Shown here piece after piece: positions 3,001-6,000 of a stretch of DNA of 24,801 bases. Numbering within the stretch: position 1 is the stretch's first letter; the number at the start of each line of letters is the position of its first letter. This DNA comes from Bdellovibrio sp. (GTDB taxonomy: Bacteria; Bdellovibrionota; Bdellovibrionia; Bdellovibrionales; Bdellovibrionaceae). The DNA lies in NCBI GenBank assembly GCA_036676395.1, contig JAKFCY010000006.1, positions 1 through 24,801 on the forward strand. The letters are read 5' to 3'. Position numbers: made by a program.

Positions 3001-6000
3001 GCAAAAACCACAAGAAAAATCCTAGAATTATTATTGGTGAGAGGAAAAATATTGTCTTTGTTATAGGTCTTTGGTTCAGCAAGTCAATCAGTTTTTCGGA
3101 CTTTATTAAAAGCGAGTAGGCTAATCCGAAGAAAAGTCCGACTAGAATTGCTTGGGGCAAAAACATTGTCACTAACTCAAAACTTCGAAAAAGGCCACCT
3201 ACAATTATTGAATAAGTCAATGCTCCGTAAACTGTCGATAAAACGGTAAAAATTGGTGGTTTGAATAGTTTTTTTGAGTGGTCAAGTCGACTTAATGGCC
3301 AAATAATGAAAACTGACCACGCAATTGTTATAAAAAGTCCCGACCAAAAAATAATCACTCCACTATCGTCTGCTTTTCCGTCTTCTGAAACAAGGTAAAT
3401 TGAATTGAGTATGTTCATCAATGTCCAAGCTATGGTCATTGAGAAAAATCCAATTGTTTGTTTAACGTTATTTATTTTCAGTGTCGTCATTTTTACCTTG
3501 CCCATAACATCTCGCAAATACACGCAGGGCGTGAGTTTCCCGCTGAACTTCCTACGAAGAGCTGCATTTCAAATTTACTTCTTTCCTGTCAACGAAGCAC
3601 CGAAACCCAACTTGCGGGTATTTTGCGGTGTGTGCCTTGAATGGTGAATATAGGTCAATTAGTTGATCGTTCCAACGGGTAAAATGCGAAGCATTCATGA
3701 ACACCATTGAATACAAATACTTCGTGAATAAAGTCCCTTTAGCACGGGGGTAATCCCGTAGGGAAGGGAAAGGCTGTTCCGAAGCTAAGCAAGTGGTGGC
3801 GGTAGCTATCGGCATGGTTTACCGCGAGAGGACTGAGCGTTAAGAAAATATCCTGTGGATATTTTTAGTGAGGGGCCAGGCTGCGGACCAGCCTCCTTTT
3901 CTGCCTACTACTATAACTTTGTCATGGCTGAGAAGAAAAGGGTATGAATCGATGCTATCCTACTACCTCAAAACGCAACCTACAATCCAGTGAACCGCCG
4001 TATACGAGACCCGTACGTACGGTGGTGTGAGAGGCGCACCTCGTCAGAGAAATCTGGCGAGGCCGTCTACTCGATTACAAGCTGGGCTTCTGTCTGTGTT
4101 TGTATGTTCGTCAATAGCTGTCAAGTTTTTCCTTTAATTAATTTGTCAAGCTCGTTCGCATAGTTAGCAAGAATTAAATTTACTTCTTTCATTGAAGTTA
4201 CAAGGTTCTCAAAGTCAGGATATTTCTTTTGCAGCTCTTGTGGAGAAAGTCTCTTATTAATTTCTTCTTCCTTTGCGTTTTCAAGCCACTTACGAAACTT
4301 TGCGTGGTGTTCTGTCAAGTGCGGACGCAAACCATCATTTAATATTTTTCTTGTCAAGCCAATTAGTGCTTTTGTTGGGTCGTGGTCTTTCAAATATCTA
4401 CCCGGAACTGTTTTAATTTCGTCTCTTATGATGTTGAATAGCTTATACCAAGAGTCATAAATCTCTTCAATGCTGTCATTATTTTCGTCAATAAGTATTG
4501 CCGCCTTTCTTGTAGTTAATTCAATGTGAATTCGATTAGCGATGTATAAATTGTCGTGGTTACGTTCAACTTTAAAAACCATTTTAGGAGTTCCAGAAAT
4601 TTCGACTTCTAAATTTTGCCACCTGAATAATTTTGAAAATTGTCTTTTCAAAATTATCAGAGCAATTATGATAGCTAATATAATCCCTATGAAAATCCAA
4701 TCACTAGAAATTATTAGGGAAGGTTGTTTTCTTTCAAAAGCAACTCGAATAAGTTCGTGTGTTGAAGTGGTGTCTGTCATAGTTATTGCCATTTGTCACT
4801 GGTTCTATTGTTCGCAAAGATTGGATATGAATTGTCGGGCGTAATCTTGTTCCTGTCCTCAAATGCTTTGTGTATCCAACCTTGAACTTCCGCTGGATTT
4901 TTAGACCATTTATATAATTGTGCAAATCTATTTTTTTCATCTTTCCAATTGTCATAAAGTCTTGGAGGAATTGTATGTGGGTCAAATTTATTGTCGTTTA
5001 AAGGGTAGCTAGGCATGAAAATACCTAATAACCCAGAACGTGAATTAAATTGTGTTTGTCTTATACTTGAGCCAATTTCCCAATCAACGTGTTTTCGTTG
5101 CCAAGTGTTGTTTCCAATAAGCACAATGGTTACGGTAGAATCTCTTAAATATTCATCTCTAATTTTTTGTCTGATAGTTTCAGTTTGTAAGTTGGGAGCA
5201 ATTTCACCAATTTGAACTGATTTACTTATCATTATTTGGTGATAGTTTGCGAATAGTGCCTCAAATTGATTGCGATAAGTTTGGTCAGGCTCCGTATGGT
5301 GATAACTTACAAATACCTTATGAATGTTTGTTGCCATATTTTTAAAGTTTAAATCCTAAAAAGTTTATTGAATTACTTTCCTCACGTTCACGAGAATTAT
5401 TTATTTTGTATGCGTTATTAGTCCTGTTCCAGTAAGCATAGTTTACCTTGCTTTCAAAATCTCTTTCTAAATTTTCCCATTTCATACTAACTGCATATCC
5501 AGATTTTATATTGTCGGCTAATCTGTCAGGTACAGAATGACTGTCAGTTGGTAGGAAGATTGCCAAAAGCCCATTTGGCTTAAATGATTTCAAGGGGTCG
5601 TATGGATGGGTGTAACTTCGCAGGGATGCCCAAATCTCCCAGTCTATCCATTTTCGATATCCTGTTCTTGAACCAACTAAAACAACGGTCACGGAGCAGT
5701 TCCTCATTTTCTCACGAACCTTCTTATAAATTGTTTCATCTGTCAAGTGTCCAATGTCGTCTTTTAAAGAGTAGTCAGCCACTCTCATATTCGTAATGGT
5801 CTTGCGAAGTTTTGTCAAATATTTTTGGTCGTTGTCGTGATGGTAGCTCACAAAACAATTTCGTATTTTCTTTTCTATTGGCATTTATGAAGTAATTATT
5901 GCGTCCATAACGCCACTTAACGGGTGTACTGAACTACTATAGTTAGAAAACATTTTTCTTTCAAGAATAAGTTGTTTCTCTTGTCCTTGCTTCTTGATAA

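Follow-up and report, generated by a model that had tools for sequence, protein, structure and literature searches.

Introduction

Class IIC group II introns are described as using a short IBS1 and inserting immediately 3' to a hairpin (PMC7923331). IIC-attC introns enter at TTGT/T in the R'' box of the attC bottom strand and lie antisense to the gene cassettes, as set out in PMC7923331 and PMC3001079. Fragmented introns outnumber full-length ones across bacterial genomes, according to PMC7923331. HYERs, in the accounts of PMC11754743 and PMC12990946, are class IIC introns that have no ORF and act as hydrolytic endonucleases. HYER1 is given in PMC12990946 as 637 nt long; it has D1 and D3 and recognizes its target through a site of 6 nt.

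We analyzed a window of 24,801 nt from Bdellovibrio sp. (genome G000), positions 1-24,801 of one contig, which contains four intron copies in an array of gene cassettes. An earlier note had read the best of these, copy 1, as a HYER-like class IIC ribozyme, complete and protein-free. We reach a different conclusion, which we hold with a probability of about 85%: window positions 3630-4075 hold what is left of a bacterial class IIC group II intron after an internal deletion, a relic that is not autonomous.

3630-4075 (+): probable class IIC group II intron relic, internally deleted, 446 nt; from homology to full-length introns of sister genomes, junction consensus and empty-site comparison

Results

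Copy 1 descends from a class IIC group II intron

An Rfam search matched RF00029 to 3993-4075 (+) over the full model (1-77) at 41.7 bits, with a cut-off of 40 (E 3.3e-5 over the whole window, 1.2e-6 over 901 nt), and this was the sole Rfam group II match in copy 1. Its domain V triad reads CGC at 3996-3998, aligned to the AGC of the consensus. In class IIC introns the catalytic triad of domain V is CGC instead of AGC. The folded RNA was more stable than shuffled sequences (z -3.1; 0 of 100 shuffles equally stable), and the hairpins of domains V and VI were present in both the MFE and the centroid folds. No D1D4 family matched copy 1 at E<=10, either with the element alone or in a permissive search of the whole window. 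There was also no RT frame within the element, which holds only a maturase tail of 34 codons. We thus reproduced the Rfam score, the CGC triad, the absence of an RT gene and the related copies antisense in attC-like repeats that the earlier note had reported, together with its observation that no model matches domains I-IV. The class IIC descent of an element with no RT gene is likewise borne out, by the Rfam match, the triad and homology to full-length introns.

Two details of that description changed. The element had been placed at 3628-4075; its 3' end at 4075 stands, but its 5' end most likely lies 2 nt inward, at 3630 (GUGUGCC), because the preceding GT belongs to the GTT box of the attC. 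It had also been called ORF-less; it indeed contains no RT frame, but the end of a maturase ORF, 34 codons long, lies at 3889-3993. Copy 1 is made up of nt 1 to ~172 of the full-length intron with three insertions, the 34 maturase codons, and domains V and VI, arranged as follows.

3630-3684 (+): 5' end of domain I, equal to full-length nt 3-57; 89-96% identity to three full-length introns
3685-3732 (+): 48-nt insertion missing from full-length introns, whose rows are gapped here in a MAFFT alignment
3733-3827 (+): continued 5' part of domain I (full-length nt ~58-150), including a 13-nt insertion; from the alignment, 85% identity to G021 full-length nt 55-120
3828-3888 (+): dispersed hairpin module of ~55 nt, last domain I bases (GCCAGGCTGCGG) and deletion junction
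3889-3993 (+): remnant of the RT/maturase ORF, last 34 codons and stop; from translation against the G021 IEP
3993-4075 (+): domains V and VI (domain V 3995-4025, CGC 3996-3998); RF00029, 41.7 bits

The 48-nt insertion resembles the part of the G032 full-length intron that codes for maturase domain X (78% similarity), as well as window 15632-15682 (84%). The hairpin module (copy 1 nt 201-259) gave isolated matches of 81-87% at many loci in many same-genus genomes, outside introns as well as elsewhere within intron relics, and a terminator-like hairpin lies at 3878-3894. The translation of 3889-3993 is identical to residues 393-426 of the G021 IEP at 28 of 34 positions (E 9e-17).

The middle of the full-length intron is missing

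Three sister genomes carry full-length relatives, of 1875 nt (G021:C10), 1855 nt (G018:C10) and 1962 nt (G032:C34). Their similarity to copy 1 is confined to nt 1-57, nt 55-120 and the last ~172 nt, at 85-96% identity. Each encodes a group II RT/maturase of 426 or 427 aa (TIGR04416, 367-370 bits, cut-off 300), with the domains RVT_1 and GIIM only and no endonuclease domain. All three matched RF02001 (D1D4-3; 63.6-80.2 bits, cut-off 32), RF01998 (D1D4-1; 40.6-49.2 bits, cut-off 35) and RF00029. Copy 1 lacks full-length nt ~173-1686 (~1.5 kb), and with them the RF02001 and RF01998 segments and 392 of the 426 maturase codons. The missing RF02001 segment holds a hairpin loop with ACAG, complementary to the CTGT at the end of the 5' exon, which makes the loop a candidate EBS1. 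With its D1-D4 core regions absent, copy 1 is not a complete six-domain ribozyme. We found no group II IEP above the cut-off in the G000 assembly, where the best was a partial match of 158 bits, and no other parts of the full-length intron of the copy 1 family.

From this comparison, copy 1 RNA would be unable by itself to build the group II active site or to recognize exons, so we expect it neither to splice nor to cut DNA. Its domains V and VI are intact and of the same type as in relatives with intact IEPs, which speaks against a relic, as does the greater stability of its fold compared with shuffles. Nonetheless, as most of the catalytic core is lost, we regard copy 1 as probably a dead relic, not as a ribozyme that still works without protein. 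An assembly artefact was considered and rejected, as the same architecture is repeated in several contigs and genomes.

The introns occupy the GTT box of attC-like hairpins

The array consists of one- or two-gene cassettes on one strand, several of them anti-phage. The window's cassette genes, among them three ThsB-like TIR genes and Septu PtuA/PtuB, all run on the minus strand, and all four intron copies are on the plus strand. The repeats between the genes are imperfect palindromes of ~130 nt with ends of the form ...YAAC and GTTR..., and they fold into long hairpins. RYYYAAC and GTTRRRY boxes are present in them; their unpaired spacer is one-sided (4-5 nt vs 0-1), and no clear extrahelical bases were seen in the folds.

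3502-3629 (+): attC-like hairpin (bottom strand) of cassette 4121-4792 (-), 5' exon of the intron, ending with the GT of the GTT box
4076-4082 (+): rest of the R'' box (T ACAAGC), start of the 3' exon, lying after the intron and before the stop codon of gene 4121-4792 (-)
6413-6546 (+): empty attC-like repeat (...GGTGCTGT|TGCAC...), profile seed, supported by its fold and used for the intron boundary
7449-7582 (+): empty attC-like repeat after the Septu cassette, from fold and attC profile
12050-12181 (+): attC-like repeat whose end is the copy 2 5' junction; nhmmer with the attC profile, E 2.6e-17
15276-15398 (+): attC-like repeat whose end is the copy 4 5' junction; nhmmer, E 1.6e-5
22779-22900 (+): attC-like repeat whose end is the copy 3 5' junction; nhmmer, E 1.4e-19

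The introns sit antisense to the cassettes, having entered the GTT box of the hairpin at NTGT|T. The sequence NTGT| was present at 19 of 21 distinct 5' junctions (TTGT in seven of these), and 19 of 20 3' exons begin with T. As is the rule for class IIC, the insertion lies just 3' of the attC-like hairpin and has a short IBS1. The attC profile was built from six seeds and recovered five window sites, two of them seeds, but missed a second repeat family. Three of its matches stop exactly at intron 5' junctions. The attC of copy 1 itself (3502-3629) had no match to the attC HMM at E<=1e-3; its hairpin is supported by the fold of the reconstructed empty site. A search of 120 other genomes of the genus gave no homologue of the cassette gene beside copy 1, and the copy 1 boundary therefore rests on homologous attCs elsewhere and not on its own site. 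The empty repeat at 6413-6546 has homologous occupied sites in G018 and G027. Folds, profile matches and NTGT|T junctions together agree with the placement, already given in the earlier note, of the element antisense within attC-type repeats of an integron-style array.

Sister copies are decayed and partly chimeric

12181-12746 (+): copy 2, chimeric relic with domain V destroyed; no RF00029 match
15395-15957 (+): copy 4, relic of a second subfamily; keeps ~90 nt of domain I as well as domain VI, with a decayed domain-X remnant of the maturase and domain V destroyed
22899-23157 (+): copy 3, 5' part of a deletion-type relic, ending just past the deletion junction; from reading the sequence

Copy 2 has two parts. 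The 395 nt at its 5' end, on the attC side, are of the copy 1 type with an extra 26-nt insert, at 87.6% identity over 396 nt (12179-12574), and the 143 nt at its 3' end, on the gene side, are of the copy 4 type, at 96.5% identity to copy 4. Copy 3 is 89.2% identical to copy 1 over 204 nt (22897-23100). Common 3' ends lie at 4032-4077, 12703-12748 and 15914-15959. These relationships are as they had been described before, and most sister copies are indeed decayed, domain V being kept only by copy 1 and lost in the other three of the window's four copies. Copy 4 had been listed as truncated; we find instead an element of 563-565 nt that starts at 15393/15395 with a 5' end of its own and retains a decayed trace of domain X. 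It has a GIIM match of 22.3 bits, an open frame at 15483-15650 and 81% identity over 306 nt to nt 1438-1741 of the G032 full-length intron. Its match to RF02003 (22.2 bits, below the cut-off of 49) was the sole extra match in the permissive Rfam searches.

The deletion lineage occurs in different attC-like sites with different flanks in G000 (three times on C54, and on C50), in G021 (two) and in G032 (at least two). Among the deletion-type copies in G021, in G032 and on C50, domain V is disrupted or replaced. Copies in G000 differ by 10-12%, so none of them is recent.

An Xer/IntI-like recombinase heads the same type of array

The absence of an integron integrase had been taken as a weakness of the integron reading. 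On contig C50, an Xer/IntI-like recombinase (C50:1110-2258) heads the same type of array, and cassettes of the same attC type follow it directly in the same orientation. It scored 218.7 bits against TIGR02249 (cut-off 265), with model positions 179-238 unmatched, and 230.2 bits against NF040815 (cut-off 220). Its best PDB match was XerA 5hxy (167.5 bits), and IntI4 2a3v gave 148.1 bits; the IntI-specific additional domain is missing. Orthologues with 51-82% identity were located no more than ~5 kb from arrays that bear introns, in G021:C14, G018:C10 and G023:C2; stops interrupt those of G018 and G023. This synteny in sister genomes, together with the gene on C50, answers the objection. The window itself holds a remnant of such a gene, with 74% DNA identity to C50:2136-2252.

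14022-14177 (-): decayed C-terminal fragment of the array recombinase gene; TIGR02249 positions 264-315, 53.9 bits, one internal TAA

Relatives of the array recombinase and of the IEP are mostly from Bacteroidota. The nearest plasmid IEPs are from the Bacteroidota Chondrinema, Adhaeribacter, Chryseobacterium and Persicobacter (64-73%), followed by Firmicutes (42-45%). On integrons in this phylum the statements in two preprints conflict, one counting Bacteroidota among the carriers and the other among clades previously without integrons; the phylum goes unmentioned in the main text of Cury et al. 2016. The contigs had been thought probably foreign to the genus, and the matches to the element in 18 of 36 same-genus genomes contradict this.

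Discussion

We propose that an ancestor of ~1.9 kb, coding for an RT/maturase of 426 aa, retrohomed to an attC-like site, into the bottom strand in its folded form. Entry would have been between the GT and the T of the GTT box, immediately 3' to the hairpin and antisense to the cassette gene. The copy would then have gained small insertions in domain I and later lost full-length nt ~173-1686, with the D1-D4 segments, the candidate EBS1 loop and 392 of the 426 codons. The deleted form may have spread among intron copies through ectopic recombination, which fits copy 2 as a chimera of two relic lineages. Recurrence at many sites is unexpected for an immobile relic, and would call for gene conversion of once full-length copies or for help in trans.

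We considered whether the chimeras are scars of cassette building. The model of Leon and Roy, as described in PMC7923331, has two introns, one at an attC and one beside a gene, undergo homologous recombination so that the gene becomes linked to the attC. Without exception the relics lie exactly between the 3' end of a cassette gene and its attC; in copy 2 the part on the attC side resembles copy 1 and the part on the gene side copy 4, as the model would have it; and C121 and C107 of this genome carry IIC introns at terminators. However, ordinary gene conversion between resident copies also produces chimeras. The donor arrangement of gene plus intron was found for none of the window's cassettes, and the lack of a homologue for the cassette neighboring copy 1 in 120 genomes also weighs against it. 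We consider such scars an unlikely origin of the relics. A broader account, in which the deletion lineage persists and spreads by recombination between introns or by help in trans and the chimeras are scars of cassette genesis in an Xer-run array of Bacteroidota type, strikes us as equally doubtful.

A relic could also be kept because it is useful, its 5' part serving as Pout for the next cassette and its structured part blocking read-through as in S.ma.I2. This reading is compatible with the relic explanation and does not exclude it. A scan with the promoter consensus gave one candidate in copy 1.

3647-3675 (-): outward-facing promoter-like site TTGGAA-17-TATATT, 9/12 in a consensus scan; the sigma-70 consensus may not suit the host

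The site runs from 3675 to 3647 on the cassette strand, inside domain I, and faces gene 2702-3523 (-). Pout in domain I is given in PMC3001079 as a conserved feature of IIC-attC introns, and the 5' 200 nt are retained in copies 1-3 and on C126. Against this, one promoter-like site was found where shuffles lead to an expectation of 1.5, and the sigma-70 consensus itself may be unsuitable, as relatives of the recombinase and the IEP are mostly Bacteroidota. Pout activity of this site is thus a lead only, and we think it improbable that usefulness explains why the relic was kept.

Alternatively, the deleted form could be a mobile, non-autonomous mini-intron, with its ends recognized and its core supplied in trans by complete introns or RNPs as it colonizes new attC sites. 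A single deletion lineage at at least eight different attC-like sites in three species would be accounted for in this way, as would the good conservation of the ends (the 5' 57 nt and the 3' end, 88-96%), and complete ORF-less IIC introns are present in the same genome, on C121 and C107. Yet we know of no mechanism by which a group II RNA that has no domains ID, II and III could reverse splice. Domain V is gone from most copies of the lineage, the 10-12% divergence among the G000 copies leaves none recent, and an intact IEP is absent from G000. Mobility of this kind is very unlikely, even more so than the two readings above.

That copy 1 is a complete, compact, protein-free HYER-kind ribozyme that cuts ssDNA at a programmable site is the least credible reading and almost certainly wrong: the lack of an ORF, the 5' GUGUG, the CGC triad, domains V/VI above the Rfam cut-off, the fold z-score of -3.1 and a length of 446 nt within the 0.4-0.6 kb given in PMC11754743 for ORF-less group II ribozymes would suit it, but both Rfam D1-D4 segments found in all three full-length relatives are gone with ~1.5 kb of sequence, the 105 nt immediately before domain V consist of residual maturase codons, the candidate EBS1 loop is deleted where HYERs have D1, D3 and a 6-nt target recognition site (PMC12990946), and truly complete ORF-less relatives measure 599-747 nt and match D1-D4 models.

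Taken together, we favor the internally deleted relic, which removes a false lead: copy 1 is not worth synthesizing as a candidate for a compact DNA-cutting ribozyme. Complete ORF-less IIC introns exist elsewhere, in G000 and in G023, and offer better HYER-like candidates of the same family, with full cores.

G000 C121, ~346-1091: complete ORF-less IIC intron
G000 C107, ~85125-85841 (-): complete ORF-less IIC intron
G023 L038 (1317-1921, 605 nt) and L039: complete ORF-less IIC introns

The window also provides a record of IIC introns that target attC, and of what they decay into, in an integron-like array with a recombinase that does not have the hallmark domain of IntI. It extends the known host range of the association between introns and attC sites, in an array whose recombinase has mostly Bacteroidota relatives, and its natural chimeras bear on the old proposal that introns help to build cassettes.

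Copy 1 can be compared with four described systems. HYERs share with it class IIC descent and the absence of an ORF; they differ in having D3 and a D1 with a target site, whereas copy 1 has neither the D1-D4 core nor the candidate EBS1 loop. Chromosomal integrons and CALINs resemble this array in their cassettes on one strand, palindromes of ~130 nt with YAAC/GTTR ends and a tyrosine recombinase at the head, whereas the recombinase here has no IntI-specific domain and is co-oriented with the cassettes, and the attC spacer is one-sided. IIC-attC introns such as S.ma.I2 of Serratia marcescens resemble it in position, entering the attC bottom strand at NTGT|T in the gene-proximal GTT (R'') box, with a hairpin just upstream, antisense to the cassettes and splitting the gene from its attC; the full-length relatives of copy 1 also resemble them in an RT/maturase that has no endonuclease domain. 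In contrast, the window copies are gutted, and the recombinase and closest IEPs point to Bacteroidota, while the hosts listed in the published set are proteobacterial. The fragmented introns UHB.F1 and H.ha.F1/F2, as described in PMC7923331, are likewise defective remnants in integron or CALIN arrays. They are described there as 5'-truncated, whereas copy 1 keeps both ends and has lost its middle, and, unlike what is described for them, the deleted form here recurs at several sites in several species.

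Copy 1 as the probable remnant of a full-length intron

The earlier note had proposed that copy 1, the intron element at window 3630-4075(+), is a complete, protein-free class IIC ribozyme of the HYER kind (ORF-less IIC introns cutting ssDNA). Its underlying observations were confirmed by Rfam searches and repeat comparison: the model for group II intron domains V-VI (RF00029) matches 3993-4075(+) over its full length at 41.7 bits (cut-off 40), the domain V triad in that alignment is CGC at the consensus AGC position, and the element recurs in the window. The D1-D4 families gave no match on copy 1, at E<=10 in a search of the element or at E<=1 in a search of the whole window. 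When folded, the copy 1 RNA was somewhat more stable than shuffled sequences (z -3.1), with hairpins recovered for domains V and VI; intron fragments would give this result, which is uninformative about a core.

We searched 60 genomes for DNA relatives of copy 1; matches came from 18 of the 36 same-genus genomes and from 6 of the other 24, and the intron family is therefore native to the genus. Three sister genomes carry full-length introns, of 1875 nt (G021:C10), 1855 nt (G018:C10) and 1962 nt (G032:C34, ORF broken). The G021 and G018 introns have ORFs of 426/427 aa, which are group II RT/maturases (TIGR04416, 367-370 bits vs a cut-off of 300) and in which the only Pfam domains are RVT_1 and GIIM. 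All three introns contain RF02001 (D1D4-3; 63.6-80.2 bits; intron nt 129-308 in G021), RF01998 (D1D4-1; 40.6-49.2 bits; nt 332-425) and RF00029. By DNA search and alignment, copy 1 could be aligned to them at four stretches only.

Stretches of copy 1 (nt 1 at 3628) alignable to full-length introns
nt 1-57: full-length nt 1-57, identity 89-96%
nt 103-169: full-length nt 55-120, identity 85%
short further stretch, ending GCCAGGCTGCGG: full-length to about nt 172, seen in alignment
last 170-177 nt: full-length last 172-177 nt (G021 1704-1875), identity 85-89%

The 105 nt directly upstream of domain V (3889-3993) translate into a sequence identical at 28 of 34 positions to residues 393-426 of the intron-encoded protein (IEP), followed by a stop codon. 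Copy 1 is therefore without full-length nt about 173-1686. The missing part takes in RF01998 entirely, the RF02001 segment almost entirely and 392 of the 426 codons. It also includes a candidate EBS1, a hairpin loop with ACAG in the RF02001 alignment that is complementary to the CTGT ending many 5' exons. The remaining domain I is interrupted by three insertions.

Insertions in domain I of copy 1
3685-3732: 48 nt, resembles maturase-coding sequence
second insertion: 13 nt
3828-3886: a ~55-nt hairpin module

Taken together, we conclude with a probability of roughly 0.85 that an ancestor intron retrohomed into an attC hairpin, that copy 1 was then inactivated by insertions together with a single large internal deletion, and that the remnant would be inert as a ribozyme. 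A Pout-type role for copy 1 is possible, although the single promoter-like site within it is not above chance.

Insertion site

The window corresponds to positions 7301-32101 of contig C54 in its source genome (G000). Our junction set, drawn from the window, G000 and sister loci, comprised 21 distinct 5' and 20 distinct 3' junctions. GT precedes GTGTGCC at every 5' junction, 19 of the 21 have NTGT before the intron (TTGT 7, CTGT 6, ATGT 5, GTGT 1), and the 3' exon starts with T at 19 of 20 junctions. An empty repeat at window 6413-6546 reads ...GGTGCTGT|TGCAC...; its left half precedes the intron at an occupied site in G018, and its right half follows the intron at a site in another sister genome, G027. 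Judged by the junction consensus and the empty-repeat comparison, the copy 1 intron most likely starts at 3630 (GUGUGCC) and is inserted between GT and T of the GTT box.

Folding gave imperfect hairpins of ~130 nt for the attC-like repeats, with YAAC/GTTR at their ends. With a profile made from six of them, five were detected in the window, every one on the + strand; for three, the end coincides exactly with the 5' junction of copy 2, 3 or 4. Each intron lies on the opposite strand, between the stop codon of a cassette gene and that gene's repeat.

Other copies and spread of the deletion

The repeat structure described in the earlier note was borne out by repeat comparison, and further matches were found elsewhere in G000.

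Matches to copy 1 in the source genome
window 12179-12574: 87.6% identity across 396 nt
window 22897-23100: 89.2% identity across 204 nt
window 12703 and 15914: 44-46-nt 3' end of copy 1
contig C126, 1443-1697: 90% identity
contig C50, 7104-7415: 72% identity

Copy 2 (12181-12746) is a chimera: its 5' 395 nt are of the copy 1 type plus an extra 26-nt insert, decayed sequence with small hairpin insertions stands where domain V would be, and its closing 143 nt match copy 4 at 96.5% identity. The 5' end of copy 4 is a separate one, at 15393/15395 (the start of a different subfamily); this copy has a weak RF02003 match, no domain V, and a decayed domain-X remnant (GIIM 22.3 bits; frame 15483-15650; 81% identity to nt 1438-1741 of the G032 full-length intron). 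A 142-aa ORF at 15244-15672(-) with no Pfam match overlaps copy 4 and the attC-like repeat 15276-15398, and is almost certainly spurious. Copy 3 ends shortly beyond the deletion junction, and the C126 relic retains domain I as far as about full-length nt 215, where it stops. Copies with the same deletion junction as copy 1 occur on C50, on G021:C14 (two) and in G032, each with domain V disrupted or lost. In G000 no group II IEP scores above cut-off; the best hits are a partial one on contig C127 and a 5' half at the end of C86. The genome contains no other piece of the family's full-length sequence.

One deletion lineage is present at several different sites in three species. We favour ectopic recombination between intron copies as the means of spread; the copy 2 chimera is direct evidence that such exchange takes place. 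Alternatively, the lineage could have spread via help in trans, or in connection with intron-mediated joining of genes to attC sites, as has been proposed (PMC7923331).

The ~55-nt hairpin module (GGACYSAGCGTYAAGAAA ... TTTTAGYGARGGGCC) is conserved at window 3828-3886, 12405-12465 and 15795-15850 and at C50 about 7150-7205. Its position varies: some intron relics carry it in domain I, others where domain V would be. It also occurs by itself at many loci across many genomes of the genus, and it has no Rfam match. Another repeat, small and palindromic ((T)CCCGA-N4-6-TCGGGA, often with CAGGC after it), occurs at window 6765-6790 and 10395-10420 and within domain V or domain I of several relics (loci L035 and L037, window 12630-12660); it has inserted repeatedly into intergenic DNA and into introns, where domain V was in some cases destroyed.

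Cassette array and recombinase

The cassette genes of the window are all on the minus strand and include three ThsB-like TIR proteins, Cass2, AHSA1, ArsR and Septu (PtuA 550 bits, PtuB 222 bits). For the cassette beside copy 1 (4076-4800; gene 4121-4792, unmatched in Pfam and PADLOC), no homologous DNA exists in 120 further genomes of the genus, which fits fast cassette turnover. At the non-array edge, an M56 (BlaR1-like) peptidase gene (431-2377) contains four tandem 54-nt repeats, 65-100% identical, at 2099-2314(+).

A second family of long non-coding inter-cassette elements lies at window 9969-10786, 14284-14742 and 19170-19440, at C54:32403-32774 and on C139. Common to them are a left part (...GACTAACGAACC...) and a right part that ends ...CCTAGTTGTTA beside the upstream gene. 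Their structure is not that of simple palindromes, and a recombinase fragment adjoins one. Within a non-coding element of the array sits a ~200-nt dispersed repeat (10256-10454), with 72-85% matches on >20 G000 contigs, several at contig ends; the repeat is probably an IS or MITE end.

At the start of contig C50, a 382-aa tyrosine recombinase (1110-2258(+), loci L004/L048) is followed by same-strand cassettes with the same repeats as the window and by an antisense relic at 7104-7417. It passes NF040815 ("tyrosine recombinase/integron integrase"; 230.2 bits vs 220) and falls below the TIGR02249 cut-off (218.7 vs 265) because model positions 179-238 have no counterpart, 19 residues standing there instead. 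Its best solved relative is archaeal XerA, above VchIntIA. Given this gap and this relative, the IntI-specific domain appears to be absent. In three sister genomes, orthologues are co-oriented with intron-bearing arrays and no more than about 5 kb away from them, and a decayed recombinase fragment lies within the window array at 14022-14177(-).

Recombinase orthologues in sister genomes
G021:C14: 74% identity
G018:C10: 69-82% identity, one stop
G023:C2: 51% identity, decayed

Bacteroidota are the main source of look-alike recombinase clusters and of the nearest plasmid IEPs. The array may represent a platform of the integron kind that uses a Xer-type recombinase, its host being Bacteroidota-like.

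Complete ORF-less relatives and comparison with known systems

Elements that are ORF-less and otherwise complete, about 600 nt and of the copy 1 family, occur at NTGT|T sites in sister genome G023 (99% complete), in which no RT/maturase of group II type is seen at E<=1e-20. G000 itself has two class IIC introns that are complete and ORF-less; each directly follows a terminator-like hairpin plus T-run, with no IEP on either contig.

ORF-less elements and their Rfam matches
G023 L038, 1317-1921: all three segments, 79.5, 46.7, 39.2 bits
G023 L039, about 1301-1899: all three segments, 87.3, 43.3, 40.3 bits
G023 L037, 394-1001: two of three segments
G000 C121, about 346-1091(+), about 747 nt: RF02001 131.7, RF01998 46.8, RF00029 36.4 bits
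G000 C107, about 85125-85841(-), about 717 nt: RF02001 116.9, RF01998 37.6 bits; domain V visible in sequence

HYER1 has 637 nt, D1 and D3, and a 6-nt target recognition site (PMC12990946, PMC11754743). The interpretation in the earlier note finds partial support. The HYER-like architecture belongs to the C121, C107 and G023 elements and not to the window copies, and the C121 and C107 introns are the real HYER-like candidates of this genome. Group IIC-attC introns are described as lying antisense in the attC bottom strand, at TTGT/T of the R'' box, and in Serratia marcescens integron #2 S.ma.I2 parts aadB from its attC (PMC3001079, PMC7923331). The window introns resemble them in the bottom-strand R'' site, the antisense placing and the parting of a gene from its repeat.
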